The translations under genes were made by a program, and so were the position numbers. Below, piece after piece: positions 55 to 60,137 of a DNA stretch of 64,000 nt (its first letter is position 1; every line of letters starts with the position of its first letter). Source of the stretch: Stegostoma tigrinum (taxonomy: Eukaryota); assembly GCF_030684315.1 (NCBI RefSeq), contig NC_081360.1, forward strand, positions 48,183,424 to 48,247,423. The letters are read 5' to 3'. The notes under the pieces are model-generated. The model worked only from the letters and a program-made list of their open reading frames with translations, was not told where the DNA came from and did no database searches.

Positions 55-910
55 TGGCCAACCTCATTCCAATCACTACAGAGATATAGACCAACTAAGC
101 GAGTGGGCAAAACCTTGTACGCAATATAATCTGGGAAAATGTGAGATTGTTCACTTTGGGAGGAAAAACAGAAGAGCTGAACATTATTTAAACGGAGAAA
201 GACCATAGAAAGCTACAAACAGAGTGACTTGAAAATCCTCATCTGTGAATCAGAAAATGTAGTATCCAAGATCAGCAGGTATTTGGAAAGGCAAATGGAA
301 TGTTGGTCATTATTTCAAAGGGGATGGAGTATAAAAGTAGGGAGGTTCTGCTAAAACTATACAAGACAGTAGTCAGACCACAGCTGGAATAACATGAACA
401 GTTTTGAGTCCCTTATCCAAGGAAAGATGTACTGGCATGAGATGATGGGTAGAGAAGTTTCACTCAGCCTATATCAGGGTATGGAGAGACTGGATTCTGA
501 GGAAAGGCTGAGCTTGTGGTTGTGTAAGGAGTAAGGAGTCACCTATTTAAAACCGAGTTGAGGAGGAATTTCTTCTGTCGAGATTCGTGAAATTGTGGAA
601 TTCTTTATAAAGCAGACAGCTTTTGAAGATAGGTAGTTAAGTATATTAGAGGCCGAGGGAGATTTTTAATCAGAAGGGAGTCAAAGCTTGTAGGAAAAAG
701 GCAAAAAAGTGGAATTGAGAGTTATTAGATCAGCCATGGTATCGTTGAATGGCAAAACAGACTTCTTGGCTTGAATGAAAGATAACAAGATGTAGAGCTG
801 GATGAACACAACAGGCCAAGCAGCATCAGAGGAGCAGGAAAGCTGACGTTTCGGGCCTAGACCCTTCTTCAGAAAATGAATGGCCTAGTTCTGCTTGTAC
901 GTTTTATGGA
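55..910 (+). mobile_element. Decayed CR1/HER1-like LINE 3' fragment (with a small PLE-derived insert at ~779-875)
   Basis: DIDQLSEWA..KCEIVHFGRKN (RT C-terminus), then LVRPQLE-like region and gatcagccatg...gaatggcc 3' end. Confidence 0.75.
779..875 (-). mobile_element. Short PLE-derived terminal fragment with hammerhead motif
   Basis: Reverse complement of 845-872 is CTGAAGAAGGGTCTAGGCCCGAAACGTC, followed by the family 3' sequence. Confidence 0.75.
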
Positions 911-1339
911 CCCTTGCAAGAGAAATCATGAAAGTGAAAAATAAAGAAGAATGTGTAGATAGGGTTGATGGATTAGGGAATAAGGAGTCTCATCTGAGGC
1001 ACAAATGCCAAACCAAATATTTCTGTGCTGAGAATTCCATGTATTTCTATGGTGAACTGAGTCAGTTTGAATGTAATAGAATTGAGAGGATCCAAATATA
1101 GCTATATGAAAGAACATATCTTCTTCCTATCACAATTATTAGAAACTGCTTAAACATGTCAAGAGTAAGCATGACTTTCAGTTTTATTAGTAACCCTCAA
1201 CTGCATGCTCAGCTCATGAAGCCATATACATTTGATTGCAGTGAACAAGTATGGGTGTTGTAGTTCAGTGACAGCTTTAGCCATATATCTGTAAAATTGC
1301 ACCAAGTTTAATTTTGAAAAGAGCTGCTTTTATAGATCC

Positions 1340-1528
1340 AGAGGTAGTGGGGATTGCCGATGCTGGAGAATCTGAGCAAAAATGGTGTAGAGTTAGATGA
1401 ACACAGCAGGCCAAGCAGCATCAGAGGAGCAGGAAAGCTGATGTTTTGGGTCCAGATCCAAACCGTCAGCTTTCCTGCTCCTCTGATGCTGCTTGGCCTG
1501 CTGTGTTCATCAAGCTCTACACCTTGTC
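1340..1528. mobile_element. Fold-back (hairpin) PLE-derived non-autonomous element
   Basis: gatgaacacagcaggccaagcagcatcagaggagcaggaaagctga followed by its reverse complement; junction inside the hammerhead region. Confidence 0.8.
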
Positions 1529-1683
1529 AGCTCTGTTTTTCTCGATCATTGCAATTCACTGTAACCATGAAGACATGCTAAAAGTATTAATTGAATTATT
1601 CTTAATGCACACTGTTTTAAACACAACTGCTTGTTATTTAAAGCAAGAAATCTGACCATTGTGTTCCGTGTTGGGTGTTATAG

Positions 1684-1908
1684 GTTCAATTGCAAAACAT
1701 TTTGATGAGCAAGTATGTGGAATATTTCTTTGTGGATGTCTGCAGTTGGCAAAAGAAACTAATGATTACTGATTTGATCATCTCTATGTGGATGGAAGTG
1801 CAACGAACATGGGCTTATTTGTACAGTATTTTTACTGGTTCTGAAGATATCAGGAATCAACTTTCTGAAGATGCTAAACAATTTGATGAGATTGACTTGA
1901 ACTTCAAG
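1684..1908 (+). CDS. DNAH11: Dynein heavy chain exon (DHC_N2/linker): [15 protein letters not shown]...DEIDLNFK
   Basis: ttatag|GTT acceptor, AAG|gtac donor, 225 nt, phase 0/0; [17 protein letters not shown] motif. Confidence 0.93.
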
Positions 1909-3178: not shown

Positions 3179-4330
3179 GATAATAAAATGTGAGGCTGGA
3201 CGAACACAGCAGGCCAAGCAGCATCTCAGGAGCACAAAAGCTGACGTTTCGGGCCTAGACCCTTCATCAGAGAGGGGGATGGGGGGAGGGAACTGGAATA
3301 AATAGGGAGAGAGGGGGAGGCGGACCGAAGACATTTTTCCATCCCCTCCCCTGTCTGCTTTCCGGAGAGACCACTCTCTCCGTGACTCCCTTGTTCGCTC
3401 CACACTGCCCTCCAACCCTACCACACCCGGCACCTTCCCCTGCAACCGCAGGAAATGCTACACTTGTCCCCACACCTCCTCCCTCACCCCCATCCCAGGC
3501 CCCAAGATGACATTCCACATCAAGCAGAGGTTCACCTGCACATCTGCCAATGTGGTATACTGCATCCACTGTACCCGGTGCGGCTTCCTCTACATTGGGG
3601 AAACCAAGCGGAGGCTTGGGGACCGCTTTGCAGAACACCTCCGCTCAGTTCGCAAAAAACAACTGCACCTCCCAGTCACAAACCATTTCCACTCCCCCTC
3701 CCATTCTCTTGATGACATGTCCATCATGGGCCTCCTGCACTGCCACAATGATGCCACCCGAAGGTTGCAGGAACAGCAACTCATATTCCGCCTGGGAACC
3801 CTGCAGCCATATGGTATCAATGTGGACTTCACCAGTTTCAAAATCTCCCCTTCCCCTACTGCATCCCTCAACCAGCCCAGTTCGTCCCCTCTCCCCACTG
3901 CACCACACAACCAGCCCAGCTCTTCCCCCCCACCCACTGCATCCCAAAACCAGTCCAACCTGTCTCTGCCTCCCTAACCGGTTCTTCCTCTCACCCATCC
4001 CTTCCTCCCACCCCAAGCCGCACCCCCAGCTAACTACTAACCTCATCCCACCTCCTTGACCTGTCCGTCTTCCCTGGACTGACCTATCCCCTCCCTACCT
4101 CCCCACCTACACTCTCTCCACCTATCTTCTTTACTCTCCATCTTCGGTCCGCCTCCCCCTCTCTCCCTATTTATTCCATTTCCCTCCCCCCATCCCCCTC
4201 TCTGATGAAGGGTCTAGGCCCGAAACGTCAGCTTTTGTGCTCCTGAGATGCTGCTTGGCCTGCTGTGTTCGTCCAGCCTCACATTTTATTATCTTGGAAT
4301 CTCCAGCATCTGCAGTTCCCATTATCTCTG
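3179..4330 (+). mobile_element. 5'-truncated Penelope-like element (Neptune-type) with GIY-YIG endonuclease and inverted 5' arm (3179-3330)
   Basis: ORF 3507-3977 has VVYCIHC...LYIGETKRRL..RF.EH...E..LI.RL.TL.P.GIN; Cys-rich linker CNRRKCYTC upstream; TSD AGCATATAAGGGATA at 3168-3182 and 4331-4345. Confidence 0.9.
4202..4229 (+). ncRNA. Minimal type-I hammerhead ribozyme motif in PLE terminus
   Basis: CTGATGA-A-GGGT CTAG GCCC-GAAAC-GTC: catalytic boxes, stem II, palindromic ACGT stem III, GUC triplet; mirror copy on - strand at 3243-3270. Confidence 0.8.
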
Positions 4331-5210
4331 AGCATATAAGGGATACTATTTAAACCACACCTAGAAATCTGCGATCAACTTTGGTCCTCTCCTTTTAAGG
4401 AATGATATACTGGCATCGAAGGCATTCCAGAGAATGTTCACTCAGTTGATTACATGTATGGGGCAACTGTTTCATGAGGAAAGGTTGAGTAGTTTAGGCC
4501 TATACTCATCGGTGTTTAGCAGATTGAGAAGCAGAATCAAGGGATGCGGGGAGAGTGCCAGGAAGTGGAGTTGATATGCCCATCAGCCATGACTTAAATG
4601 GCAGAGTGGACTTGATGGGCCGAATGGCCTTACTTCCACTCCTATGTCTTATGGTCTTATGTGATTTTATTAAAATAGAGAAGATGGTTAGTGAAATTAA
4701 CAGGGTAAGTGTGCAGATGTTATTTTTCTTTATGGGAGAGCCTAGGTCCAGATGGCATAATCTCAGAGTAACAGGTCACCTATTTAAGACAGATTTGGGG
4801 AATTTTTTTTTTTCTGATGGTTGACAGTCTGTGGAATTCCTTATTTCAAAATGCTGTTAAGGTTGCATTATTAAGTATGTTTTCCCAGCCACCATCAGTT
4901 CTGAGGAAGGGTCACTGGACCCGAAACGTTAACTGTTTTCTCCTTCACAGATGCTGTCAGACCTGCTGAGCTTCTCCAGCAACTTTGTTTTTGTTCCTGA
5001 TTTACAGCATCCATAGTTCTTTCAGTTTTTGTTAAGTATGTTCATGAATAAAAGAGGCAGATTTTTAATCATTCAGAGAATTGAGGGTCAAGGGAAAAGG
5101 CAGGAAAGTGGAATTGCATTATCAGTTCAGTCATGATCTCAATGAATGATGGAGAAAGCTTGGTGGGCTGAATGGCCTACTTTACTTGCTGTGTTGTATG
5201 GTCTTTTATG
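4331..5210 (+). mobile_element. Decayed CR1-like 3' fragments (continuing from ~3060), interrupted by PLE-derived inserts
   Basis: KPHLE..WS-like region and two 3' ends ending gaatggcctact...tatggtctt. Confidence 0.65.
4882..5031 (+). mobile_element. Short hammerhead-bearing PLE-derived element, second subfamily
   Basis: CAGTT-CTGAGGA-A-GGGTC ACTG GACCC-GAAAC-GTT-AACTG at 4896-4935; TSD TTAAGTATGTT at 4871-4881 and 5032-5042. Confidence 0.8.
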
Positions 5211-5434: not shown

Positions 5435-6095
5435 GAAAGTGCGTCTCCTTCCAGGTGAAGCAGTGATTTACTTGCCCCCCTTTCAATTTATTATACTGTA
5501 TTCCCTGTTCACATTGTGGTTTTCTCTAAATTGAGAAAATTGGGTTATTGATGTGCAGACCACCACAGCTCACTCCACACACACAACCCTGAGCATCTGG
5601 GTTGCTGATTTAATTCACCACCTGCTATTACATACACATGTCTATTTCCAGCCTGCTGCTGTGTTTCAGTAAAACTCAACGTAAGGGCAATGAACAACAC
5701 CTCATCTTCCACCTAGACATTTTTCTCACCTTCTGAGCTCAATCTTGAGTTCCACAGTTTTAGACCGTGAACTCTTGCATTCATTTGGTTTTTGTTTAGC
5801 CATGTGCCAGTATCTGGACAAGTGATTTGTCTCTTTAACTACAGTCATTTTCACTCCCTTCACCATTTCTTCAGTGACTTTGCAGTCACTTAATTTCTCC
5901 TGCCTCTACACTTTCCCAGAATTTCCTTCTTTTTTCCTCAGTATCTTACACTCTATCAGCTATAGATAACCCAACACATTTCTGCTGTCCATCTGTTTGG
6001 AAGAATGGGCATCTTAACTCAAAATATTAACTCTCTTTCTGTCTTCACAGATGCTGCTAAACATGCTGTTTTCCAGTAATTTCTGTTTCTATGAC
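5435..6095 (+). mobile_element. Old, decayed Penelope-like element 3' end
   Basis: Translates to FQVKQ*FTCPPFNLLYCIPCSHCGFL*IE (GIY-YIG remnant), later EQHLIFHL; ends in a degenerate cacagatgctgc family terminus. Confidence 0.65.
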
Positions 6096-8158: not shown

Positions 8159-8285
8159 ACTGACACATTGTGAGAAAGCTTTAGCTGAATATCTTGAGAC
8201 TAAGCGACTCTCGTTTCCAAGATTTTACTTTGTTTCTGCAATGGATTTATTGGAAATTATTTCCAAAGGAGGTCAACCAAAACAG
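8159..8285 (+). CDS. DNAH11: Dynein heavy chain exon: [26 protein letters not shown]...GGQPKQ
   Basis: tttacag|A, CAG|gtaaa, 127 nt; conserved YLETKR..FPRFYF motif. Confidence 0.95.
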
Positions 8286-8399: not shown

Positions 8400-9186
8400 C
8401 AACCCGACTGAATTTCTTCCCAATGTTTTGCTGGATTTCACAGAATCATAGAATTCTTGACTTTATGGATTTCATTGATTAATAGAGAGATTAATGAATT
8501 TACTGGATTGTGTTGTATGATACCGCATGAATTGGATGATTAATTCATTGAATGAAAAGTTATGTAATAATTCAATTATCTCAGTAATGAGAATTATATA
8601 ACAGTTATGGAATTTGACTAACTTAGTTTATTAAATGTCTGATTATGATGAATTTCATTCAATTTTTAATGCGTAATTTATCATGTTTTCTGGGTTAATC
8701 CAGCTAAGGAACTGATCATCTAATAAATGTATTGCATTTGATAGGTATAATTTAATTAAGTGAAAGCAATAAATGCTGGAAACAGTCAGCATGTCAGTCA
8801 GCAGCTCTGAAGAGAGTAGGTAACAGCATGATTTAGTTGCTAATCCTCTGATGAAGGACACTCACTTGAAACATTAAAATGTGCGTTCTCTCACAGATGC
8901 TAACTGACCTGCTGTATGTTTGTAACATCATCTGATTTTACTTTGAATTTTCACTGTCTTCAGTGTTTTCTTAAAATAAATTAATTTTCTGGATTCCAGT
9001 CATGGAAAATTTAATGAATTTGATGACTGCATTGATTTACCAAGAGATTATTTAATGGAATTCATTCAGATGCAGAAAATGCAATGAATCCTTTGGATTT
9101 GATTCACTCAGCCAGACATTATTTAAAGAATTCACTGGATTCCACTCATTAAAGCACAGATAATTTAATGAATTTTATTGAATTAG
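8400..9186. repeat. Degenerate AT-rich tandem repeat (~40-45 nt unit), interrupted by an old fold-back hammerhead element (~8760-8975)
   Basis: Recurrent ttaatgaatt(c/t)actggatt(c/t)ca units; ctgatgaagg...gaaacatt at 8848-8875. Confidence 0.5.
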
Positions 9187-10021: not shown

Positions 10022-10348
10022 GGGTGGCACAGTGGCACAGTGGCTCAGTTGTTAGCACTGCAGCCTCACAGCGCCAGGGACCCAGGTTCAATTCCAGCCT
10101 CGGGTGACTGTCTGTGTGGAATTTGCACATTCTCCCTGTGTCCACGTGGGTCTCCTCAGGTCGCTCCGGTCTCCTCCCACAGTCCAAAGATGTGCAGGCA
10201 AGGTGGATCGGCCATGCTAAATCACCCGTAGTGTTCAGGGTTGTGTGGGTTATAGGGGGATGGGTCTGGGTGGGATGCTTCAAGTGGCGGTGTGGACTTG
10301 TTGGGTCGCAGGGCCTGTTTCCACACTGTAGGGAATCTAATCTAATCT
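10022..10348 (+). mobile_element. tRNA-derived V-SINE (HE1-like)
   Basis: A box TGGCTCAGTTG, B box GGTTCAATTCC, V-domain ctgtgtggaatttgcacattctccc, CR1-like tail ending (aatct)n. Confidence 0.88.
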
Positions 10349-12199: not shown

Positions 12200-14100
12200 T
12201 TCACATCAACAGCTACTAACAGTGCATTCCAGGTACTTCCTGCTTTGTGTTTGTAAAAAAAAACTTGCCTCTCACAGCTCCTTTAAACTTTCCCTCTTTC
12301 ACTTTGAACCTATACGATACCCCACTAAGTATTTGACATTTCTGCCCAGAGAAAAAGACTACAACTATCCACCAAATCTATTGCCTTTCCCAATTTTATA
12401 TATGTCTATCAGGTCGCCCTCAACTTCTGATGCTCTAGCGAAAGCAGTCCAAGTTTATCCAATGTAACAGGCCAAGCAGCATCTTAGGAACACAAAAGCC
12501 GATGTTTTGGGCCTTGACCCTTTTCTGATGAATGGTCTAGGCCCGAAACATCAGCTTTTGTGCTCCCAAGATGCTGCTTGGCCTGTTGTGTTCATCCAGC
12601 TCCACACTTTGTTTTCTCGGATTCTGCAGTATCTGCAGTTCCCATTATCTCTGATACAAGTTTATCCAACCACTCCTTTTGGCTAATATACTGCAATCCA
12701 AGCAACACCCTGGTAAACCTCTTCTGCACCCTCTCCCATGCTTCCATATCCTTCCTCTATGTGGCAGCCAGAACTGCGCACAGTAGTCTAAATGTGGCTG
12801 AACCAAAGTGTTATACTACTGTAATATGATTTGCCAACTTTTATAATCAAGGCCTTTACTGACAATTGCAAGCACTTGAAACTTGCACTGGCCTATAATT
12901 TCCTGGATTGTCCCAGTTGCCCTCCTTAAACAGAGGAACAACATTGGCTATTCTTCAGTCTTTTGGGACCTCGCCTGTGGCTAAAGAGGCTATAAAGATC
13001 TCTGAAAGCCCCTGCAAACTTCTCTCTTGCATCTTTCAATATAGTAGGGTCGATCCCATCAGGCCCTGAGGAATAAGCTACATTAATGTTTCTCAGTATC
13101 AGTATAGCCTGCCCAAATCTTGCCATCATCTGTGTCCTTCTTGATGAATACTGATTCAAAGTTCTCATTAAGGACTTTGCCCACTTCCTGTGGCTCCTTG
13201 TGTAAATTCCCTCCTTTTGTCTTTGAATGGATCTACCGTTTCCCTAGTTAATCCATTGCCCCTAATAAGTGTATAAAATGCCTTGGGATTTGCCATAATC
13301 CTACTTGCCAAGAAAATTACATGACTCCTTTTAGTCCTCCTAATTTCTTGTTATATTATTTTTCTGCTCCATTTATATTCCTCAAGGGTCTTGTCTGATT
13401 TCCATATACTAAACCTTGTACATGCTTCCTTTTAATATTTCTTGTCATCCGTGGTTCCTGAATCTTGCTATCCTTATCTTTCATCCTCAAAGGAACGTAT
13501 TGGCCCTGAACTCTGATCATTTGGTCTTTAAAAGATTCCTACATGCCAGATGTGGATTTACTCTCCATCAGCCAACACCAGTCTAATTTCTTCAGTTCCT
13601 GTCTAATATTGTTGTAATTAGCCTTTTCCCCAGATAGCACTTTCACCTGAGGATCAATCTCATGCTTATTCAAAAACTATCTTAAAACTTAAGGAATGAT
13701 GATCATCATTCCAAAATGTTGCTCCACTGAAACTTGATCACCTGGCCAGGCTCATTCCTCAATAAAAGGTCTAGTTTGGCCCCTTTCTGAGTTGGACTAT
13801 ACATATATTGTTTCAAGAAATCCTTCTGGATGCATCTAACAAATTCAGACCCATCCAAGCCCCTGGCATTAGGGGATTCCCAGTCAATATTAGGAAAGTT
13901 AAAATCCCTCACTACAGTAACCCTGTTATTTTTACACCTTTCCATGACCTGCTTCAATAAATGTTCTTGTCTCCTGCTGACTATATTGGGAGGGATTTAA
14001 CCCTATCATATTGATTTACGTCTTTCCTATTCCTGTATTCTGCCCATACGGACTTGCTGGATGAGTTCTGTGGCAGTCCCTTTAATGCAACGCCCCATCC
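12200..14100 (-). mobile_element. Decayed CR1-like LINE (endonuclease to 3' end, with deletions)
   Basis: VVRDFNFPNIDW...LDLLL (13706-13957), SSGPDGIDP (12926-13168). Confidence 0.8.
12463..12656. mobile_element. Fold-back PLE-derived element with hammerhead motif, inserted in CR1
   Basis: Inverted arms around ctgatgaatggtctaggcccgaaacatc; TSD CAAGTTTATCCAA at 12450-12462 and 12657-12669. Confidence 0.82.
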
Positions 14101-19996: not shown

Positions 19997-20695
19997 GTAA
20001 GTTGTCTTTAAAACAAGTTTCCTAATTAAATCTACAAAGACTGATATCTTGAGTGGTAATATTTTCGTTAAATTACAGAATTTTGACCATTCTGATTTAA
20101 TTCTACTTTTACTTGCCCATTGTACAGTGAATTTCCTCAATGGTTCTCTTAACTGGTCTTTGTAACTCACCAAGGAACCTGTTTATACAATTTATCTGGA
20201 ATTCCTTGATTATCTGTCTAAGCTATGGTAGCTGATCAGGACAATTCAAAGAAATGTCTGACAGTTGTGTTGAACAGCTTGTGATTACTACTTTTCTCTC
20301 ACAGCAGGCCACCATTTCCTATAATTCCTTCTCATTACTACAAGCTGACCAATGATTAACACATGCAGTTATTATTTTTAGATTGCAAGTTTGTTGAGAA
20401 TGCATTGAGCTCTGAAACAATTCCATCCATTTTTTTCTTCTTTAATGTTCTTGCAATAATCTTCATAATGTGCAAAGTATAGGACTGAATGAATAAGATT
20501 GAACTAATTTGCATTCCTCACTATCCATTAATTTTACTTCACATGATCAATATGCACAATTTTTATATTTTAGCTAAAACATAACGGGGGATGCCTTGCA
20601 AGTATAATGCTTTCTAGAATAAGTAATCAATGTATGACATATAGTGTACTGTACCCTATCTTTTTGAGTAGTCAAATATAATTATTTTATTGCAG

Positions 20696-25193: not shown

Positions 25194-25403
25194 GAAACAG
25201 AAGTAGCTGGAAAAGCTGAGTGGGTCTGGCAGCATCTGAGAAGAAAAATAATCAGAGTTAACGTTTCACAACGAGAAGGGTCACTGGACCTGAAATGTTA
25301 ACTCTGATTTTTTTTCTTCACAGATACTGCCTGACCTGCTCAGCTTTTCCAGCTAGTTCTGTTTTTGTTCCTGATTTACAGCATCTGCAGTTCTTTGGTT
25401 TAG
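25194..25403. mobile_element. Fold-back hammerhead-type element (second subfamily) in a CR1 remnant (~24870-26270)
   Basis: Inverted arms gctggaaaagctgag/ctcagcttttccagc; TSD ATGTTCTGGAGCT at 25181-25193 and 25404-25416. Confidence 0.8.
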
Positions 25404-42571: not shown

Positions 42572-42663
42572 GTAACGTAGATTTTTAGGAAAGAAGCATG
42601 ATTTTCAAACAATGTTTTTTTCTCATTGATTTGATTGCTGTTTGAACACTTATCATCCTATAG

Positions 42664-42756: not shown

Positions 42757-42938
42757 GTAAGGAGAAGTTGTAATTCTAGCTCGTTATAGTGGGCCAGTAT
42801 TGACATCTATGTGAATTTGAGATGGAAATTCTGGTGCAAAGGAGAAGGATTTGGCTCAATATTTTCTACATCAATGTGCTCAGGAAGTCTGGCTGTTTCT
42901 AGTCAGCGGTTGACCTATTCTTGCAAACAGCATGGGAC

Positions 42939-43105
42939 ATGGCTCTGTGGTTAGCACTGCTGTCTCACAGCACCAGGGAGCTGGGTTTGATCCCAGCCTC
43001 AGGCGACTGTGTGGAGTTTGCATGTCCTCCCCGTGTCTGGTTGGGTTTCCTCTGGGTGCTCCAATTTCCTCCCATGTGGATTGGCCATGCTGAATTGCCC
43101 GTGGG
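42939..43105 (+). mobile_element. Truncated HE1-like SINE
   Basis: tggctctgtggttagcactgctgtctcacagcaccaggg head and V-domain. Confidence 0.75.
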
Positions 43106-43181
43106 CTGCTTCCACACCAAAGGGGTTCTTTGTTAAAAATACTATATTTGGTTGCACGCTTGCTCGGTGTGTTTGATTGCA

Positions 43182-43215
43182 AATGTTTCGTCACCTTGTT
43201 GGATAACATCGTCAG
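43182..43215 (-). ncRNA. Hammerhead ribozyme motif of the Poseidon-type PLE
   Basis: CTGACGA-T-GTTATC CAACAA GGTGAC-GAAAC-ATT, 6-bp stem II with G-U pairs; degenerate mirror copy at 45952-45985 (+). Confidence 0.65.
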
Positions 43216-45378
43216 TCTGTCTCTGGTGAAGCACCGGTGTTCTGTCCTGCTTATTATTTATATGCCTCGGTTTGCTGGGGTGGTTGGTATTATTTTTTGG
43301 TGTCTTGTATATCAGGTCCAGTTCAATGTGTTTGTTGACAGAGTTCTGGTTAGAATGCCAGGCCTCTAGGAATTCCCTGACATGTCTCTGTTTGGTTTGT
43401 GTTATTAGGGATGTGTTGTCCCAGTTGAATTCATATCCTCCTTTGTCCATGTTTATTAAGACACCTGGGAATTGGTAATGTCTCTTGGTGGCTAGTTGGT
43501 GTTCATGTGTCCTTATTGTCGGTTTTCTTCCAGTTTGGCCTTTGTAATGTTTCTCACAGTCCTTGCAAGGTATTTTGTATATAACATTAGTTTTGTCAGT
43601 TGTGGGTATGGGGTCCTTTACATTCGTCTGTAGTTGTTGGTTTATGGGCTACCCTGATGCCTAGGAATCAGAGTAATCTTGCGGTCATCTCTATGTCTCT
43701 GATGTACATTAGGGTAACTAGTGTGTCTGGCCGTGTTGTGTCACCTTGTTGTGGTCTGTCGTGGAGGTAATGGCAGATTGTGCTTTCTGGGTATCCATTG
43801 CTTTTGAAAACTCCGTATAAGTGCTCCCGTTCTGCTTTTGCGCAATTTTGCGTTGCTGTGGTGTGTTGTGATTGTTTGAATAATTCCTGATGCATCTCTG
43901 TTTATGGGTGTTGGTGTGGTTGCTGGTATAATTAAGTATCTGGTCCATATGTGTTGCCTGTCTGTGTACACCTAGTCTAGAGTTTCCCCGTTGTTCTTGC
44001 ATTCTGCCGTTACGCCCAGGAAGGGTAGTCAGTTGTTGTTCTCTTCTACCATTGTGAATTTTGTTCCAGTGAGGAGGTTGTTTCTATGTTGGTGGGTTTC
44101 TTCTGGTTCGGTGCGTTTGATAATCATGAAGGTATCATCTACATAGCGGACCCAGCGTCTAGGTTAGATAGTGGGGAGCACTGTCTGTTCTAATCTTTCC
44201 ATTACTGCTACTGCAATCGGTCTGGATATTGGGGATCCCATTGGTGTTCTGTTGATTTGTTTAAATAAGTGGCCATTGAAGATGAAGTAGGTTATGAGGC
44301 ACAGATCCAGTTGATTCAGAGGTCCTTGTTAGTGCTGTTGGTGACATGGGGTGCCTGCCTTTCTGATTCATCCAGCAGTATGACAATTGTTGCTTTGTCT
44401 CGGTTGATGTTTATGGATATAAGAGGTGTTGTTACATTGAAGGATACCATTATCTTGTGCTCATCTCTTCTGGTGTCCTTGATGATGTTGAGGAATTATT
44501 GCTAGGAGTGGATGGAATGGGTAGTATTGTCAAGTAAGTTTTTCAGTTTCCGTTGTGTTGCTTTTGGCTAGTCTATATGTTGGAGTGCCTGGTAATGAGA
44601 CAATGGGTCTGAAGGGGACCCCTTGTTTGTATACCATAGGGAGTCCATAGAAGCAGGGTGTGTTGGATCCCTCTGGCTTTGTTTTTAGGTAGCCTGTCTT
44701 GCTGATGTCCCCTGAGCTCTGCAATTTCTTCAGGGTTGTTGCGATCCAGTTCATGAACTGTGGTGTTGGGTATGTTGCCACTTGTTGGTAGTTGTTGATG
44801 TTTGCTAATGTGTTGGCTTTCTTGATATTATTGAGCTCTATTAAGGATTATTGTGACGCGTCCTTTATCTGCCGATGGGATCCTGATGTTTCTGTCTTTC
44901 TTAAGTCTTTCCAGGGCTTTCTTCTCTTTCGTGTTGAATGTGTTTGACTTAGCTTTTCTGCTCAGTGTTGGGACTGTCATTTGTCTGATGGTCTGTTGTA
45001 TTTCCTCTCTGAGTTCATTGCTGTTCAGTGTTGATTCCAGTGCAGCCAGGAAGTCAGCTTTTTTTGGCATTTCTGTAGTAATAATTCAGTCCAGGTACTA
45101 GGACAGTCTTTTCAGTGTCTGTAAGTGGCCAGCCTGTGATGTTCTTGATCCATGTTTCTGTATTTCTGTTGTGAGTGAGTTTGGAAGTTTGTCTTGTAGG
45201 GATATAGTTTTCTTTGTTCAGGTCCTCTGTTGTTGAATGGTGATGGCGTGTTCCAATGTGGTTGTCCATTCTCGGTCAGTTGTGTTGGAGCACAAAGTGT
45301 TTGGCGTGCCATTGCCTGCTTGTATTTGTGGAGGCGGTTGTGGGCATCGTTGATCATAACCCTTATCATTCTGTAAGC

Positions 45379-45537
45379 TAATAAAATGTGAGGCTGGATG
45401 AACACAGCAGGCCAAGCAGCATCTCAGGAGCACAATAGCTTTTGTGCTCCTGAGATGCTGCTTGGCCTGCTGTGTTCATCCAGCCTCACATTTTATTATC
45501 TTGGAATTCTCCAGCATCTGCAGTTCCCATTATCTCT
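45379..45537. mobile_element. Near-perfect hairpin mini-element (Neptune-type PLE terminus) nested in the Poseidon-type PLE
   Basis: 57-bp perfectly complementary arms centred on AGCT (45437-45440); TSD TCATTCTGTAAGCT at 45366-45379 and 45537-45550. Confidence 0.9.
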
Positions 45538-47730
45538 CATTCTGTAAGCTGTTCTCCTTGCCTGTGGATTGTTGACAGGTGGTTTATATTTTAAACTTTG
45601 TGATAGTACCTGCCTTTTGAGGTGTACGTGCAGGAAGTATAGTTGTTCGCGAGTCGCCAACTAGCCACCAAGAGGCACGACCAATTCTCACTTGTCTCAA
45701 TACACACAGACAAAGAAGGATGTGAATTCAATTGGGACAAAACATCCATAATAGCACAAGCCAAACAGAGACATGCCAGGGAATTCCTGGAGTCCTGGCA
45801 TTCCAATGGAACTCCATCAACAAACATATTGAACTGGACCTGATTTACAAATCACTGAAAAACAAAGCTGGATATAATACCAACCACCCTAGCAAATCGA
45901 AGCATATAAATAACAAGCCAGACAGAACACCAATGCTTCTCCAGAGGTGCACTGACGATGTTACTAGCGCGGTGATGAAATGGCTACAATCAAACACATA
46001 CCAGGTTGATGAGCAAGTCTGCAACCTCTTCAACAACCTGAGCTACAAATCTTCTCAAAAACGTTAGATACCATATTCATGTATTTAAAATGTCAGATTG
46101 TAAGATTAATAATTTCTGATTGCATTAAGATCATAGCCAGAATAAAATCAGACATCAAAACAAATGACTTCAGGTATGTCCTTTCTGTTTTCAAAGTAGA
46201 GAAATTTGACATTCCATAAATATAAATGTAGCTTTTCAGGGCAGATGAGTGTTTAATAGTAATTATAAATTTACTATACTGTTCAAAGTCTGATTGTTTA
46301 GTGAAATGTAAAGTGTAACTTTGAAAGACTATTGCAACGAAGAATGGAAGTATTTGACAGGCCATAGATTACCCCCTCATTTAAATCAACTGCATGGAGG
46401 TTTGGTGGTGGGGGGGGGGTTGGTCTTTATAGCTTCACTTTTTTCTTGCAATGTAAAAATAGAGTATTGAGTTGTTCACACTTCTTAAAACAATACTTGC
46501 AGCTGAACAATTAAAAAATGATTTTCTCTTAAGAGTACTGTTGAATAACACTTATGCTTTCAATTTTTCATGTTTCTATTTCCCTAATTTTCTTAAGTGC
46601 TTTTACAAATAACGTTTCTTGCAGTTTTACCTTTTTTTAAAAGAAACAATTATGATAATACTTGTTCATTTAATGAACATTTCAAGTCTTCTAACTTCTC
46701 AGCCTTTTCCTTTCTACAACCAAGACATTTTAACTAACTTTGGTTGACTGCAGTCGAGCACCTTCTACTCCTTGCAGCTTTGGTGAGACCACATGGTCTT
46801 CAGCTTTTTGATAACTTTTTTGCTGATTCCACCTGGTTTGAAGTTTTACAGACAGGTTTGGTGCTGCTATTGCTTCTACAGCCTTTTTATTATCAGCTGT
46901 CACTTTTTCAGAAGTGGACATGCTCCTAAGCTGCTGAAAATATAAAGATGTTTTTCCCATTGGAATTGTTTCCTTCTTTCTTCTCAGAAGACTAGGGTCT
47001 TTGTAGATATGAAAATTTAGTCAGCCTAGCACTATTGCTGGTGTATTTTATGTGAGAGTGATGCCAACTGCTACTACTACTACCTTATATAGTCCAGTGA
47101 GTTGAATCTTCAGCCAGCCCCACCTTCAAACTGTTGGTTTCTGCCAGAATCATCCATGATGTCTTATGCAGATTCAATGCCACTTAGCGTTCTGGCTGCC
47201 ATTTGCCCAGGCCACTGACACCATATGGCGAATGTCTGAGGGAGAAGATCAGGCATCGTTTGTTTCAATCTTAATATCTTTATATTCGATATGATTCATC
47301 ATAGCTTATTCATTCAGATGTGCCTATTTATCAATAAAAAGTTCTTTCTCTTGAAATTCATCTTCCTATTACCATCAACATAATTGAAGGGAAAATTCAG
47401 GGTCTGCACAAGTGCGCACTAAACTGATGCCACCGATCTTACTAATCTGTCTTTTTCCAAAATAGAAGTAGAATCAGTAATCTTACAAACACTATGACCA
47501 GGCTGCCACCCCAGTTGGTCTGTTTATCTAATGAAATGGAATAGAATTCAACACAGTTATCAATTTTAAACTTAAAGCCAGTGACTTAGTCGACGACAGA
47601 TTGAGCTTAACTAACCATATGCACTATAATTGTTTAATTATGCAATAATTTATCATGTTTGTTAACTTAATATCATTTATTATAATGTTATTGTTCAGTC
47701 ATCATTTAATAGCATTGTTGCTGTTTCCAG

Positions 47731-49104: not shown

Positions 49105-49881
49105 TGTTATGCTCCATTAAATATGAACAGACTAAAATTGTGGTGTTTGTGACATGACAATGCTGTCACTTCAAAACAGTTATTTTGTCCTTTTTTTTTG
49201 AAGTGTAAAGGCAGAAGTGTCAAAGAGTCTAGGGAGTACTAGTTTAACAATGGAAATGGAGCGCCCAGCTCTCCCAGTTCAGGTTTTATCTAGAGATAAT
49301 GGGAACTGCAGATGCTGGAGAATCCAAGATAACAAAGTATAAAGATGGATGAACACAGCCGGCCAAGCAGCATCTTAGGAGCACAAAAGCTGACGTTTCG
49401 GGCCCAGACCCTACATCCTTTGTTATCTCAGGTTTTACCTAGTTTTGTTCTGGCTGCAGCAGTCGCTAGTGTTTTGAGTAGCAGAAGTGTTGCAAGCTTC
49501 AGTAAAAGGATTCCTATGACTTCCTGTGAAATCTCTCTCTGGATGTTGTTCCCACCTGCCTGGAAGAATCATGTTTGAATTTACCTTTTTGCCAACGGGT
49601 GGGCTTATGAAATGTTACAGTATTGGAACAGTTAATTAATTAAGTTGCTATATCAGGTTGGTTACACTTTCCAATAGTTAAGTTGCTCAAAATTCTGCTT
49701 TCTTTTGTTTGTGTTTCAACTGTGGTGTTAAATAAATTTTCTTCTGCTTAAGGCCAAGTAGTTTGACGAGTTGCATCACACCTGGAACACCCACTTCACA
49801 TCTACCTTTAAAATAAGAAAATGTTAGGGTCGAGGCTACCTTTTTGAAGTGTTTTGAGGGGGTCTTGCCTGGCCCATAACA
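49105..49881 (+). mobile_element. Probable solo LTR
   Basis: Starts TGTTATG and ends CATAACA (7-bp inverted termini, TG..CA), internal AATAAA near 49731; no clean TSD. Confidence 0.45.
49292..49428 (-). mobile_element. Short PLE-derived terminus with tiny inverted arm
   Basis: Tail plus terminus to the hammerhead stem II; TSD TCAGGTTTTA(T/C)CTAG at 49279-49293 and 49428-49442. Confidence 0.78.
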
Positions 49882-51304: not shown

Positions 51305-51498
51305 TGAGATAACGAGGTGCAGAGCTGGATGCACACAGCAGGCTGAGCAGGAAATGTTTTCTGAAGAAGGGTCTAGGCCCGAAACGTCAGCTTTCCTGCT
51401 CCTCTGATGCTGTTCCACCTGCTGTGTTCATCCAGCTGTACACCATGTTATCTCAGAATCTCCAGCGTCTGCAGTTCCTGCTATTTCTGAAGCAATTC
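51305..51498. mobile_element. Fold-back PLE-derived element with intact hammerhead motif (51361-51388)
   Basis: CTGAAGAAGGGTCTAGGCCCGAAACGTC; short inverted arm; TSD ATTTTCCCACT at 51294-51304 and 51499-51509. Confidence 0.82.
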
Positions 51499-53030: not shown

Positions 53031-53504
53031 CTTATTCGTATACTCATCCAACTGTTTTTTAAATGTAGTAACTATACTTGAATTCACTACTTTTCTGGCA
53101 GTTTGTTGCAGGTAGGAAAATCTCTGTGTTTAAAAAAAAAAGTTGCCCCTCATGTCCCTTTTAAAACGTTCTCCTCCAACCTTAAAAATATGCCACTGCT
53201 TTTGAATTCCCCCACCTTGGGAAAAAGACCTTTGTTATTCGCCTTATCAATGTCCTTTGTGATTTTATAAACCTCTATAAGGTCACCCCTCAATGTCCTA
53301 ATCTCTGATGGAAAAATGTCCGGGTCCTTCCTTATAACTCAAGCCTACTATTCGCAGTAATGTCCTGGTAAATCTTTTCACAACATTCTCCTCTGTAATA
53401 ATATCCGTCCTATAGGAGGGCAACCAGAACTGCACACAATACTCGAGAACAGGCCTTATCAATGTCTTGAACAGCCTCAACATGACATCCCAATTCCTAT
53501 ACTC

Positions 53505-53682
53505 AAAAACTGAAAGAACTGCAGATCCTATGAATCAGGAACAAAAGCAAATTTGCTGGAAAAGCTCAGCAGATCTGGCAGCACCTGTGAAGGAAAAAAC
53601 AGAGTTAAAGTTTTGGGTCCAGTGACCCTTCCTCAGAACTGTTCTGAGGAAGAGTCACTGGACCCGAAACATTAACTCTGTT
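53505..53682. mobile_element. Fold-back element with two head-to-head hammerhead motifs (second subfamily)
   Basis: gggtccagtgacccttcctcagaac-t-gttctgaggaagagtcactggacccgaaac. Confidence 0.78.
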
Positions 53683-54132
53683 TATCAATTAGCAAAATCC
53701 CAAATTGCCTACTGTCTTGTGTGACAGTGTTCCTGCATTGAAATGTACAAGAAATGGTTTAATTTTTTCTGTTTAATTGAATGCTTTACATGTTGGAAGA
53801 TAGGATTTAATCATCGCCAAAGTCTCAGAAAAAATATGTAGAATGCTGAGCTATCGAGATGAGCTGAGGTGTGATTTAGTACAGGAGTGGTAATGTAAGA
53901 GGTTATGATGGTATAATTGTATTTACAAAACATGGCAATCGATGTATTAAGGTGCGTTCTTTATTATTTGGAATCAATTGCAACATTTCAGACTTTGAGC
54001 AGCAAAAAGGAATAAATGTGGCATTTAATACATCAAATGTTTTTTTGTTTTGTGGTGAGAGCTTTGAGAAACAGGATGTAGTTGATCAAGGGCTAAAAAT
54101 AATGTGAGTAACCCTGGCACACATGAGAGGGG

Positions 54133-56620
54133 GATAATAAAGTGTGAAGCTGGATGAACACAGCAGGCCAAGCAGCATCTCAGGAGCACAAAAGCTGACG
54201 TTTCGGGCCTAGACCCTTCATCAGAGAGGGGGATGGGGAGAGGGTTCTGGAATAAATAGGGAGAGAGGGGGAGGCGGACCGAAGATGGAGAGAAAAGAAG
54301 ATAGGTGGAGAGGAGAGTATAGGTAGGGAGGTAGGGAGGGGATAGGTCGGTCCAGGGAAGACGGACACGTCAAGGAGGTGGGATGAGGTTAGTAGGTAGG
54401 AAATGGAGGTGCGGCTTGGGGTGGGAAGAAGGGATGGGTGAGAGGAAGAACAGGTTAGGGAGGCAGAGACAGGCTGGGCTGGTTTTGGATGCAGTGGGGG
54501 GAGGGGATGAGCTGGGCTGGTTGTGTGATGCAGTGGGGGGAGGGGACGAACTGGGCTGGTTTTGGGATGCGGTGGGGGCAGGAGAGATTTTGAAACTGGT
54601 GAAGTCCACATTGATACCATTGGGCTACAGGGTTCCCAAGCGGAATATGAGTTGCTGTTCCTGCAACCTTCGGGTGGCATCATTGTGGCACTGCAGGAGG
54701 CCCATGATGGACGTGTCATCGAAAGAATGGGAGGGGGAGTGGAAATGGTTCACGACTGGGAGGTGCAGTTGTTTGTTGTGAACCGAGCGGATGTGTTCTG
54801 CAAAGCGGTCCCCAAGCCTCCGCTTGGTTTCCCCAATTGTAGAGGAAGCCACACCGGTACAATGGATACAGTATAGCACATTGGCAGATGTGCAGGTGAA
54901 CATCTGCTTAATATGGAAAGTCATCTTGGGGCCTGGGATAGGGGTGAGGGAGGAGGTGTGGGGGCAAGTGTAGCACTTCCTGCGGTTGCGGGGGAAGGTG
55001 CCGGGTGTGGTGGGGTTGGAGGGCAGTGTGGAGCGAACAAGGGAGTCACGGAGAGAGTGGTCTCCAGAAACCAGACAAGGGTGGGGATGGAAAAATGTCC
55101 TGGGTGGTGGGGTCGGATTGTAGATGGCGGAAGTGTCGGAGGATGATGCGTTGTATCGGGAGGTTGGTGGGGTGGTGTGTGAGAACGAGGCGGATCCTCT
55201 TTGGGCGGTTGTGGCAGGGGCGGGGAGTGAGGGATGTGTTGCAGGAAATGCGGGTGACACGGTCAAAGGCGTTCTCGACCACTGTGGGGGGGAAAGTTGC
55301 GGTCCTTGAAGAACTTGGACATCTGGTATGTGCGGGAGTGGAATGCTTCATCCTGGGAGCAGATGCGGCGGAGGCGGATGAATTGGGAATAGGCGATGGA
55401 ATTTTTGCAGGAGGGTGGGTGGGAGGAGGTGTACTCTAGGTAGCTGTGGGAGTCGGTGGGCTTGAAATGGACATCAGTTTCTAGCTGGTTGCCTGAGATG
55501 GAGACTGAGAGGTCCAGGAAGGTGAGGGATGTGTTGGAGATGGCCCAGGTGAACTTGAGGTTGGGGTGGAAGGTGTTGGTGAAGTGGATGAACTGTTCGA
55601 GCTCCTCTGGGGAGCAAGAGGCAGCACCGATACAGTCATCAATGTAACGGAGGAAGAGGTGGGGTTTGGGGCTTGTGTAGATGCAGAAGAGGGACTGTTC
55701 CACGTAACCTACAAAGAGGCGGGCATAGCTGTGGCCCATGCGGGTGCCCATGGTCACTCCCTTTGTCTTTAGGAAGGGTGGAATCGAAAGAGAAGTTGCT
55801 GAGGGTGAGGACGAGTTCAGTTAGGCAGATGAGGGTGTCGGTGGAGGGGGACTGGTCGGGCCTGCGGGACAGGAAGAAACGGAGGGCCTTGAGGCCATCC
55901 GCATGCGGAATACAGAAACACCTCCGCTCGGTTCGCAATAAACAACTGCACCTCCCAGTCGCGAACCATTTCAACCCCCCCCCCCATTCTTTTGATGACG
56001 TGTCCATCATGTGCCTCCTGCAGTGCCACAATGATGCCACCTGAAGGTTGCAGGAACAGCAACTCATATTCCGCTTGGGAACCCTGCAGCCCAATGGTAT
56101 CAATGTGGACTTCACCAGCTTCAAAATCTCCCCTTCCCCCACCGCATCCCAAAACCAGCCCACTTCACCCCTCCCCCCACTGCATCACACAACCAGCCCA
56201 GCTCATCCCCTCCCCCCACTGCATCCTAAAACCAGCCCAGCCTGTCTCTGCCTCCCTGACCTGTTCTTCCTCTCACCCATCCCTTCCTCCCACTCCAAGC
56301 CGCACCTCCATTTCCTACCTACTAACCTCATCCCACCTCCTTGACGTGTCCGTCTTCCCTGGACTGACCTATCCCCTCCCTACCTCCCCACCTATACTCT
56401 CCTCTCCACCTATCTTCTTTTCTCTCCATCTTCGGTCTGCCTCCCCCTCTCTCCCTATTTATTCCAGAACCCTCACCCCATCCCCCTCTCTGATGAAGGG
56501 TCTAGGCCCGAAACGTCAGCTTTTGTGCTCCTGAGATGCTGCTTGGCCTGCTGTGTTCATCCAGCTTCACACTTTATTATCTTGGATTTTCCAGCATCTG
56601 CAGTTCCCATTATCTCTGAT
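54133..56620 (-). mobile_element. Neptune-type Penelope-like element: RT plus GIY-YIG on - strand, inverted + strand arm ~55915-56620
   Basis: MGTRMGHSYARLF..FLRYIDD..TFLDL..FKPTDSHSYL (55263-55757); IGETKRRLGDRFAEH (54625-55266); frameshifted; hammerheads at 54197-54224 (-) and 56490-56517 (+); TSD ACATGAGAGGGG at 54121-54132 and 56621-56632. Confidence 0.93.
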
Positions 56621-58183
56621 ACATGAGAGGGGTATCACCCGTGGACGTCCATTTCGAGAATGTGTGTACAGCAGAGATATTTTCCAAAGGACTGTAATAA
56701 ATTCAGGGATGTAGCAATTGTGGAATATGAAGGAAAAGCTACTGGTAAGTTTGAATAATGGTTGAATGTGCAAGTGATGGACAAGAAGTATGAGTAATGG
56801 ACTGGAAAAATATGTTGAAAGCCTTAAAACTTAGAAAAAATAGTGCGAGAGGATAGTGTGTTCTAGAAGTGACTTTTCAGAAAATGTTGCACTTGGGGAA
56901 AGAACCTTTGATAATGTAAGAGGGAGATTTTGCCACGTAGTCTTGACAGATAGGAAAGTGGAAATAGAAACTTGTGGGTGTATAGATTAGACAATAAAAT
57001 AAAGGCAATAGAATAGTCCTGTAACAAACAATGATAGTCTTGCCCCGGAAAAGTCATTGCAGGTGGCTACAAGGACTGAAAGATCCAACAGTACTTGGAA
57101 AGCTTGACACAATCCAAGATAAATCAGTTTGTTTGGCACCCACCACCCAGTTTAAAATTTTCACTACTCCTAGAATAGGGTAGTAGGTGTGTACCATCTA
57201 CGTGATTCGCTGTAGGACCTCACCAAAGTCCCTTCAACAATACTTACTATACCTGCAACTTATCAGACCTAGAGAAGCAAGAACAGCAAATAAATGGGAG
57301 GACTGTGACCTGAACGTTCTCCTGAAAATTATGCATATCCTCACAAAGTTATATCAGAATCCCTATATGGGCAAATAATAGAGTGACCTAAAGCCAAACT
57401 TGCAAGCATTGTGCACATCTCATGAATGAATATAAAATAAATTTCAGATGAGAATGGAATAGGCTGCCCTTTAGCTCACAAACCAGAGAAAATGGCTATC
57501 TCTTGTTGATGGACTGGGTATAGTATTGTGTTGGTCAACTAGTTTAGGTGAGATTCAGCACAGTTGGCAAATTAGATGTACATTCATTGAATAATAAGTC
57601 AATAATCGTATGATGGGAGAAGATGAGCATTCAATGAAATATGTGAACGAGAAAAGATTAAAGAAGATTGACCATCCCAGCTTGAAACAAATGCTGCATA
57701 GAAGGCTTAAAAAAAAGGTGCAGAAATAAATCATTCAGGGTTGCAATCATTCTGTGCCATTCAATAAGATCAAGGCCCAGCTGTGGATGATTTGAATTGC
57801 AAATTTCATCTCCCCCAACAACTTTTGATTCCCTTGTCTGTCAAAAATGTATGTCCTTTTATCTTAAAAATATTTAATGACCCTGCCTTCACTGCTTTAT
57901 GAGGGAGAGGCATCCAAATTTACACAATCCTAAGAAAGTAAAGATTTCTTCTCATCTCTGCCCTAAAAGAGCAACTCCTAATCTTAAAGCCGTATCTCTT
58001 ACTTCAGAACTGAAGCACAAGATGAAACATCCTTTTCACACCCATCTTTTCCAGAAAATCCTGGATCTTGTACACACCAATCAAGTCAACCTTTATTCTT
58101 CCAGACTGCAATGGAAACAAGACTACCTTGTCCAATCTTTCCTCATAGGCCAGCCCACTCATCCCATGTATCAATCTAGTAAA

Positions 58184-58435
58184 AGGGAAAAAAAAACTAA
58201 ACAACAGTGAATGCTGCAAGTTAGAATCAAAAATAGAAATTGTTGGAAAAGTTTAGCAGGTCTGGCAGCATCTGTGGAGAGAAAGCAGAGGTAACGTTTC
58301 GTGTCCAGTGACCCTTCTTCAGAACTCACTTGGAGTTATTAAGAAGGATCATTGGGTCTGAAATATTAACTTTTCATTGTCTCCACAGATTCTGCCAGAC
58401 TTGCTGAGATTTTCCAGCAATTTCTATTTTTTTAA
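58184..58435. mobile_element. Fold-back hammerhead-type element within a - strand CR1 remnant (~57720-58630)
   Basis: Inverted arms tctggcagcatctgtggaga/ctccacagattctgccagac; TSD ATCAATCTAGTAAA at 58170-58183 and 58436-58449. Confidence 0.78.
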
Positions 58436-59049
58436 ATCAATCTAGTAAACTACATCTGAACATGCTCTGATGCATTTCACCCTTTCTTATATAAAGAGAC
58501 AAGAACTGCACATATTTGGGATTTGGTCACACTAATGTCCAGCATAACTGAAGTATAAAATTTTTCTCTTCTGCTAAATTCCTGTCATAATAAAATATAG
58601 TATCACATTAACCTTCTTGATCACTCCACTATTTGCTCATGAGGGGATTCTGATATAATTCCATGTGAGGATCATATATATTTTCAGGGGAACTTTCAGG
58701 TCACAGTGCTCTCATTTGTCTGCTGTTCTTGTTTCTGTCAGTCTGATAAGTTGCAGGTATGGGAAGTAATGTTGATGGGACCTTGGTGAGCCCTACAGCG
58801 AATCATGTAAACGGTACACACCTACTACCATATGCTAGGAGTAGTGAAAATTTTAAAGTGGGTGGTGGGTGCCAAACAAACTGATTTATCTTGGATTGTG
58901 TCAGGCTTTCCAAGTACAGTTGGAGCTTTCAGCCCTTGTAGCCATCTACAGTGACTTTTCCAGGGCAAGGCTATCGCTGTTTGTCTCAGGACTGTTCTGA
59001 TGCCTTTATTTTATTGTCTAATCTATATACCCAACAGCCTCTAATTCCA

Positions 59050-60137
59050 GAGATAATGGGAACTGCAGATGCTGGAGAATTCCAAGATAATAAAATGTGA
59101 GGCTGGATGAACACAGCAGGCCAAGCAGCATCTCAGGAGCACAAAAGCTGACGTTTCGGGCCTAGACCCTTCATCAGAGAGGGGGATGGGGAGAGGGAAC
59201 TGGAATAAATAGGGAGTGAGGGGGAGGCGGACCGAAGATGGAGAGTAAAGAAGATAGGTGGAGAGAGTGTAGGTGGGGAGGTAGGGAGGGGATAGGTCGG
59301 TCCAGGGAAGACGGACAGGTCAAGGAGGTGGGATGAGGTTAGTAGATAGCTGGGGGTGCGGCTTGGGGTGGGAGGAAGGGATGGGTGAGAGGAAGAACCG
59401 GTTAGGGAGGCAGAGACAGGTTGGACTGGTTTTGGGATGCAGTGGGTGGGGGGGAAGAGCTGGGCTGGTTGTGTGGTGCAGTGGGGGGAGGGGACGAACT
59501 GGGCTGGTTTAGGGATGCAGTAGGGGAAGGGGAGATTTTGAAACTGGTGAAGTCCACATTGATACCATATGGCTGCAGGGCTGCAGTGCCACAATGATGC
59601 CACCCGAAGGTTGCAGGAACAGCAACTCATATTCCGCCTGGGAACCCTGCAGCCATATGGTATCAATGTGGACTTCACCAGTTTCAAAATCTCCCCTTCC
59701 CCTACTGCATCCCTAAACCAGCCCAGTTCGTCCCCTCCCCCCACTGCACCACACAACCAGCCCAGCTCTACCCCCCACCCACTGCATCCCAAAACCAGTC
59801 CAACCTGTCTCTGCCTCCCTAACCGGTTCTTCCTCTCACCCATCCCTTCCTCCCACCCCAAGCCGCATCCCCAGCTACCTACTAACCTCATCCCACCTCC
59901 TTGACCTGTCCGTCTTCCCTGGACCGACCTATCCCCTCCCTCCCTCCCCACCTACACTCTCTCCACCTATCTTCTTTACTCTCCATCTTCGGTCCGCCTC
60001 CCCCTCTCTCCCTATTTATTCCAGTTCCCTCTCCCCATCCTCCTCTCTGATGAAGGGTCTAGGCCCGAAATGTCAGCTTTTGTGCTCCTGAGATGCTGCT
60101 TGGCCTGCTGTGTTCATCCAGCCTCACATTTTATAGT
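59050..60137. mobile_element. Palindromic Neptune-type PLE insertion (two ~490-bp inverted 3' ends)
   Basis: Arms ~59086-59580 and ~59645-60135; hammerheads at 59150-59177 (-) and 60047-60074 (+); TSD CTCTAATTCCA at 59039-59049 and 60138-60148. Confidence 0.92.

Follow-up and report, generated by a model that had tools for sequence, protein, structure and literature searches.

Penelope-like element termini with predicted hammerhead ribozymes in Stegostoma tigrinum: head-to-head insertions and a recurrent 5' boundary of their short arms

The locus and its hammerhead cores

The window analysed here is the whole of a 64,000-nucleotide stretch of the genome of the shark Stegostoma tigrinum (NCBI RefSeq assembly GCF_030684315.1, contig NC_081360.1, positions 48,183,424 to 48,247,423 of the forward strand). 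Between the exons of an axonemal dynein heavy chain gene, i.e. in its introns, self-comparison and alignment revealed 14 insertions of Penelope-like elements (PLEs) belonging to families A and B, and in addition an old element of family C, a second PLE family beyond those listed in an initial annotation made from the sequence alone. The 5' truncation of the short elements is not random: they possess a recurrent boundary just before a hammerhead ribozyme core.

Eight intact cores had been reported, and all eight are present with the sequence CTGA(T/A/G)GA-A-stem II-GAAACGT(C/T), at 845-872(-), 3243-3270(-), 4202-4229(+), 4901-4930(+), 51361-51388(+), 54197-54224(-), 56490-56517(+) and 59150-59177(-). 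The pattern CTGANGA-N10-24-GAAACGT matches nine times in the window (mean 0.01 and maximum 1 in 100 shuffles), and a looser pattern without CGT 20 times, where 4.4 matches are expected. The ninth exact match, 58294-58322(-), had been listed among six decayed sites, all of which were found again but of which this one is thus complete in its pattern. Many of the cores had also been placed in short inverted-terminus insertions. This holds for 6 of the 14 named sites, intact and decayed counted together, but for just one of the eight intact cores (51361); two others lie in short single-armed insertions (845, 4901), and five (3243, 4202, 54197, 56490, 59150) in insertions of 1.1-2.5 kb with remnants of GIY-YIG and reverse transcriptase (RT) domains.

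The cores show the features of minimal type I hammerheads, namely CUGANGA...GAAA, an extra base after A9, the pair G10.1-C11.1 and a palindromic 15.2-16.2, with the palindrome ACGU in the place of stem III. Among 17 aligned rows (11 from the window and 6 metagenome loci, the latter retrieved by a search pattern in which stem II is fixed) nine core columns show no variation and 76.7% of the stem cells are paired, with 61% in stem I. Both sides are altered in 27 stem cells; none of 500 shuffles was as high and all slid controls were lower, in a test that is inflated by related rows. Double changes in stem II are confined to family C. In family A stem I comprises 2 bp and stem II 4 bp, and two monomers are predicted to pair via stem II plus ACGU. 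The family B terminus is predicted to fold as a hammerhead (-12.2 kcal/mol) if it begins at -5, not if it begins at -4 (C3 of the core being 0 here and below). Folding z-scores of the ribozyme segments are unremarkable, and an Rfam search of the window returned no hammerhead model among 22 matches at E<=5. By their sequence the window cores are minimal type I hammerheads of PLE termini, and their cleavage is predicted; in this, and in regarding them as PLE-mobilised, abundant and often short and inverted, the initial annotation was right.

PLE origin of the insertions

The segment 55266-55820(-) shares 43% identity (E 1e-47) with the protein P0005, which matches both RVT_1 and GIY-YIG. A GIY-YIG remnant in one long insertion (E3) scores with PF01541 at E 2.7e-4 and 21.6 bits, under the curated cut-off of 22.6; its identity reaches 93% with Stegostoma and 91% with Rhincodon proteins. 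By tblastn, GIY-YIG sequence of the window aligns to residues 730-899 of P0005 (E 1e-51). E3 also encodes CNRRKCYTC between RT and endonuclease (EN), a linker of the CX2-5CxxC class as described for Neptune and Nematis PLEs (PMC8557442; here and below, statements from papers cited by PMC or bioRxiv number refer to the portions of them that were covered). At the level of sequence comparison these matches demonstrate the PLE origin of the window elements, and the linker motif points to a Neptune-type PLE for family A, although Nematis has such a linker too.

Family C is an old inverted PLE (43168..46060) with RT and GIY-YIG-type remnants, assigned from a motif reading and two weak tblastn matches, and bears decayed variant cores (CTGACGA-T) at 43186-43215(-) and 45952-45980(+). 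The open reading frame (ORF) 43721-44083(-) within it matches neither Pfam nor P0005, its frame being the wrong one for the remnant.

Anatomy of the insertions

Twelve of the 14 insertions are two-armed, with the arms head to head and both 3' ends pointing outward; nine of them are short (136-250 nt) and three long (1086-2488 nt). The two single-armed ones are short as well: E1 (778..876, minus strand, subfamily A2) contains the intact core 845-872, starts at -4 and has no tail but a flanking repeat TGAATG, and E4 (4880..5030, plus strand, family B), with the intact core 4901-4930 and a stem I of 5 bp, starts at about -19.

The long fold-backs all belong to subfamily A1. E3 (3179..4331) has a short left arm (-61), a right arm with the tail, a CX4CxxC linker and the GIY-YIG remnant (3324-3974), cores at 3243-3270(-) and 4202-4229(+) and a 15-nt target duplication. 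E12 (54133..56620) consists of a left arm (54133-55916, minus strand) with RT (YIDD) and GIY-YIG remnants and a tailed right arm (55917-56620, plus strand), with cores at 54197-54224(-) and 56490-56517(+). E14 (59049..60134) has arms starting at -403 and -467, cores at 59150-59177(-) and 60047 (plus strand, decayed) and the tail on the left. Directly past the GIY-YIG region of A1 copies lies a tandem repeat of 38-39 nt in about three copies (3846-3957, 54473-54582, 56129-56241, 59422-59533, 59690-59802). In an old longer copy (5443..6088, plus strand) a decayed B-like terminus (5989-6088) comes after a GIY-YIG-like remnant (5443-5715).

Three of the short fold-backs have no complete core. E2 (1339..1533, A2) is centred on stem II, with arms at about +8 and +17 and the tail on the left arm; E8 (45375..45536, A1) is nested in the family C element, lacks a ribozyme core and has a 14-nt target duplication; E9 (49292..49427, family A) has a tailed left arm from +2, a right arm of 10 nt and a 15-nt duplication. 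The core of E5 (8760..8968, old and B-like, limits approximate) at 8848 is decayed, as is that of E6 (12466..12656, family A, arms +6 and -4, 13-nt duplication) at 12525, and E7 (25195..25403, family B, arms +22 and +5, 13-nt duplication) has an incomplete one. E10 (51305..51494, A2, arms about +31 and -4) holds the intact core 51361-51388, E11 (53504..53686, family B) has arms from -5/-4 and -3/-2, a palindromic centre and two decayed cores, and in E13 (58189..58431, family B, 14-nt duplication) both arms start at -4. All intact A2 (TTTT-type) and B-type copies of the window are short.

In each of the 12 two-armed elements exactly one arm carries a tail of 30-40 nt, a count in which E5, an old element, is approximate and E6, E9 and E11 have an untailed arm of still more reduced length. 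The flanking direct repeats measure 7-15 nt and are clear at 13-15 nt in nine of the 14 insertions, short or degraded in the rest. No two of the 12 fold-back junctions are alike, and in 7 of 10 comparisons the closest relative of an arm is its own partner. The arms face opposite ways, and instead of a dimer a transcript would therefore contain one ribozyme together with its antisense. The ribozyme of most short fold-backs is likely a passenger, being clipped, decayed or paired with the antisense arm.

The best Rfam matches of the window are sub-threshold models of microRNA (miRNA) precursors, on both strands, on the fold-backs at 45399-45478, 1390-1517 and 53588-53697. They arise because of the fold-back shape, and PLE fold-backs are a likely source of false miRNA calls.

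Recurrent starts of the short arms

Arm starts could be tallied for 13 elements, E5 being too decayed. The 24 starts comprise a long range (-1692, -878, -568, -467, -403, -61, -19) and, in the remaining arms, -5, -4 (five times), -3, +2, +5, +6, +8, +17, +22, +28 (twice), +31 and +82. Of the 10 short elements, 5 have -5/-4 as their most 5' start, for which a crude uniform null gives a corrected P of about 2.5e-5. In coordinates of the reference copy the recurrent boundary, the putative RNA start, falls at 4198..4201(+), i.e. -4 to -1, and by hammerhead numbering the predicted cut site, after GUC, at 4229..4230(+), i.e. +27/+28. Both arms of E8 begin at +28, the first base past this site, and have the palindrome AGCT in common. 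An extra G precedes -4 in both E13 arms, where longer B copies (E4) have C, and also in E10. Untemplated G is a mark of capped ends in L1 and SVA insertions (PMC4859970).

The boundary recurs outside the window. Contigs, not reads, of four public runs (X1, X5, X9, X12) were placed on reference positions 4051-4350, and loose ends and joints are quoted from among those listed. Before 4201 at least 701 contigs of X1 have a loose end (median loose length 255, agreement 0.37), the largest class among those listed; at the tail end there are at least 507 (median 255, agreement 0.38). The agreement of 0.37 thus indicates unique flanks at 4201, as at the tail end. The consensus of the loose letters before 4201 ends in CCTTT with background beyond, so that the boundary falls at about -4 to -6. 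Loose ends of this class are also among those listed for X5 (19) and X12 (205). Ten X1 joints with extra letters are listed. Four of them, three resuming at 4198 (-4) and one at 4200, all have an additional G; another four resume at 4230, the base directly past the predicted cut (one of these with G), and the last two elsewhere. Contig depth also rises over the terminus, a contig-based signal which is confounded by subfamilies and was set aside. In family B the sequence TCAGTTC fits the initiator consensus YYANWYY, with its A at -4.

The initial annotation had contrasted its proposal with random 5' truncation devoid of recurrent structure, and a recurrent boundary is what was found. Plain random truncation biased to short products is accordingly highly improbable, even though it is common for PLE insertions to be very short (Chlamydomonas has a median of 128 bp; PMC9977147), the long arms begin at scattered points (-61 to -1692) and the starts of a metagenome control family are dispersed, as it leaves the pile-up at -5/-4 in the window and in the contigs of three of the four runs without account.

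Proposed origin of the short arms

Starting from the PLE origin, the one-tailed two-armed anatomy, the target duplications, the non-identical junctions and the clusters of arm starts at -5/-4 and +28, we are inclined, with modest confidence, to regard the elements as independent insertions of Neptune-type PLEs whose short arms would be complementary DNAs (cDNAs) run off the 5' end of an RNA, either at its capped start or at the predicted ribozyme cut. The Poseidon element PAc of Anolis offers a precedent, as its ORF starts within the terminus, the tail is set by two adjacent internal RT start sites, and cleavage and extension take place on both target strands (PMC11167929). The tail of the shark elements translates as ILQHLQF, IFQHLQF or DLQHLQF, and the two closest full-length homologs begin with MTLLQHLHW and MTLFQHLHR. 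From this resemblance and the PAc precedent we infer that the terminus would also encode the ORF start and that a full-length transcript would carry a terminus at both ends.

The PLE protein would begin reverse transcription at the 5'-proximal copy, at a distance of 90-130 nt from the start of the RNA, and produce a cDNA of the 'strong-stop' kind. This cDNA would end at +28 after a ribozyme cut and otherwise at -4, in some cases with a G derived from the cap. Both target strands would undergo nicking and priming, the tail site being used for one strand and the inner site for the other. The resulting cDNAs would become joined head to head via local palindromes, often with the loss of a few bases, to give a one-tailed fold-back. 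The single tail in 12 of 12 two-armed elements matches the two RT start sites and the two-strand nicking of PAc. Long fold-backs may follow the same route from the 3'-proximal copy with ordinary truncation, and a jump to another RNA would yield the direct tandems seen in contigs.

Several observations weigh against this proposal. Other short arms begin at scattered points (+2 to +31, and +82), the 4201 class is not among the loose ends listed for X9, and in the main metagenome control family 0 of 21 sites start at -4 to -8, the starts being dispersed; in two small metagenome families the sequence is common only from -6/-8 at five sites, which may be a like boundary or plain divergence. The X1 counts are saturated, and the kind of its joints was deduced as direct jumps from a table that carries no label. 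As to the cut site, the four joints at 4230 may descend from about two events, the E8 junction sits within a palindrome (+28 to +30), and 4230 is not among the loose ends listed, so that starts at +28 are probably a minor class. The family A monomer, with its stem I of only 2 bp, is predicted to adopt a rival hairpin that buries the core by pairing it with the cut site (-11.4 against -3.6 kcal/mol). The QHL match is present in only 2 of 50 full-length homologs. Furthermore, among anole RNA-seq reads none ended at the cut site, and insertion in vitro proceeded normally with ribozyme mutants (PMC11167929).

Alternatively, the short elements could form a non-autonomous family resembling short interspersed nuclear elements (SINEs), in which short masters, extending between -4 and the tail, have a transcription of their own and depend on PLE protein for being copied in trans. 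This model and run-off from PLE transcripts would have the RNA start at -4 in common, and only the RNA-producing loci would differ. A fixed 5' boundary in hundreds of contigs and the shortness of all intact A2 and B-type copies in the window fit such masters, which would contain the whole ribozyme and both RT start sites; cis-acting pseudo-long terminal repeats (pLTRs) are enough for trans-mobilisation in a rotifer (PMC3846280), and contigs show direct tandem joints of short units (4329->4207 in 12 contigs, 4331->4235 in 7). Yet no two fold-back junctions match, which means that copying does not act on the hairpin as a unit, the nine rows of Tandem Repeats Finder include no array of termini, and long relatives exist, as seen from an X12 loose-end consensus ending in ATTTCTG and from the B-like terminus behind a GIY-YIG remnant at 5443-6088. 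On balance SINE-like masters as the source of the short elements appear unlikely.

The boundaries might also be hot spots of structure or microhomology, at which RT stalls at the core hairpin, with its base at about +29/+30, or attaches at a T-run or at palindromes (AGCT, ACGT, stem II), so that neither an RNA end nor cleavage is required. In the predicted A1 hairpin C0 pairs with G+29, which puts its base 1-2 nt from the cut site; the junctions of E2, E6, E8, E11 and E14 use palindromes or microhomology, and palindromic junctions with self-priming were proposed earlier (PMC3846280). In all nine short fold-backs the tail arm extends at least as far 5' as the other arm (in seven strictly farther), as snap-back on the first cDNA predicts. 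Stalling, however, predicts starts 3' of the hairpin, at +30, and not at -4 on its far side, and it leaves unexplained the extra G as well as the fact that family B, with AGTT and lacking a T-run, starts at -4. In E12 and E14, two of the three long fold-backs, the tailless arm is the longer one, beyond the reach of pure snap-back, which is thereby ruled out as the sole route. Hot spots of this kind are an unlikely source of the boundaries, though along with SINE-like masters they are the main rival to run-off.

A broader reading joins run-off from capped and cut RNAs with SINE-like masters: the insertions would be a fossil map of 5' ends, in which the transcript starts 4 nt before the hammerhead, the ribozyme removes the capped leader in the germ line, and capped and cut RNAs give short strong-stop-like cDNAs, inserted as single copies, tandems or fold-backs, with some solo copies acting as SINE-like masters. 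This can be offered tentatively, as a possibility that we rather doubt.

Opposite-strand joints from tail end to inner end were also seen in contigs, at 4293/4331 (43 contigs), 4294/4326 (27) and 4297/4329 (13); they suggest either that fold-backs are arrayed end to end or that the element inserts into an end of its own.

Comparison with known elements

The PLE kind, the minimal hammerheads, the head-to-head inverted termini and the one-sided tail are all already published. General PLE anatomy is described (PMC8969392), and inverted pLTRs with palindromic junctions are known (PMC3846280). With EN+ PLEs of the Neptune type (PMC8557442; PMC3846280) the window elements have in common an RT with C-terminal GIY-YIG, the CX2-5CxxC linker, 5' truncation, head-to-head inverted pLTRs with a palindromic junction, a tail of 30-40 nt at one end, a hammerhead near the 3' end and short target duplications. 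They differ in that many shark insertions are termini alone, with arm starts piled up at -4 and at the predicted cut site. In the literature covered, which takes in few subscription papers and neither supplements nor Repbase and Dfam, no report was found of insertion starts clustering at a PLE RNA start or cut site.

The minimal type I hammerheads of PLEs (Cervera and de la Pena 2014, PMC4209133) agree in the core, the extra base between A9 and 10.1, G10.1-C11.1 and ACGU, and in being mostly single dispersed motifs with opposite-strand pairs nearby; such pairs from truncated PLEs had been noted there. Family A departs from them by its stem I of only 2 bp, as in D. virilis, and its stem II of 4 bp. 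Sharks are not named in the portion of the main text of that paper which was covered. PAc (PMC11167929) is alike in the two RT start sites that set the tail, the cutting and extension of both strands and an ORF start in the terminus. It belongs to a different clade, and while no RNA reads were found at its cut site, the shark junctions give a hint of reverse transcription from cut RNAs.

A terminus motif had no match in genome, viral and metagenome contig collections, nor the core pattern in viral contigs. Metagenome loci L012, L031/L041, L032 and L038 show a near-identical hammerhead core with differing loops, head-to-head arms and a covarying stem I; these loci being unrelated, fold-backs are not specific to sharks.

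The initial annotation had further proposed a self-propagating family like retrozymes or MITEs (miniature inverted-repeat transposable elements), which could not be upheld. MITEs are likewise short and non-coding, with terminal inverted repeats and target duplication, whereas the window arms are unequal retrotransposon 3' ends in a continuum with coding copies. The junctions, which all differ, the variable duplications (7-15 nt) and lengths of 136-2488 nt within one anatomy, the long copies being coding, rule out a MITE. In retrozymes tandem units follow one another head to tail, and two or more complete hammerheads are consecutive (bioRxiv 10.64898/2026.07.22.740005; PMC7229834). The non-LTR type of these sources is also non-coding and PLE-related, has type I hammerheads and occurs in one sampled chondrichthyan, but it has tandem ribozymes and circular RNA, where the window elements are inverted or single with mostly clipped cores. 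A tandem retrozyme is ruled out for the window, which holds no head-to-tail units and no array of termini among the Tandem Repeats Finder rows; direct tandem joints of short units do occur in a few contigs.

Genomic setting

The host gene lies on the plus strand. Its DNAH9/17-like exons are at 2795-2885, 8159-8285, 20672-20827 and 29265-29415, of which one was tested (29267-29413, match to DNAH9/17 with E 5e-22). Intronic PLE hairpins would make long double-stranded stems in the dynein pre-mRNA. Other repeats of the window comprise an unrelated inverted pair of 430 nt with 86% identity (56959-57386 and 58621-59049) and a dispersed family of about 300 nt, SINE-like by size (10032-10345, 24093-24815, 26264-26557, 37554-37765, 42933-43102), with an inverted cluster at 24093-24815. 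Fragments at 14807-15303, 22327-23967, 26845-27629 and 62893-63707 are presumably long interspersed nuclear elements of CR1/L2 type, by the look of their translations.

Implications

Minimal PLE hammerheads cut weakly in vitro (PMC4209133), and the function of PLE hammerheads has been called unclear (PMC8557442). Because PLE hairpins imitate miRNA precursors and MITEs, caution is advisable in annotation. If the proposed origin of the short arms is true, it would explain why short PLE termini and hairpins are so common in the DNA of this shark, and the shark genome records the cleavage of PLE hammerheads in vivo, which junction counts would then measure. In a shark genome with very many copies, in vivo cleavage becomes a problem of counting an excess exactly at the cut site beside the capped -4 class; such an excess would testify to cleavage at the genomic level and show where the RNA starts.

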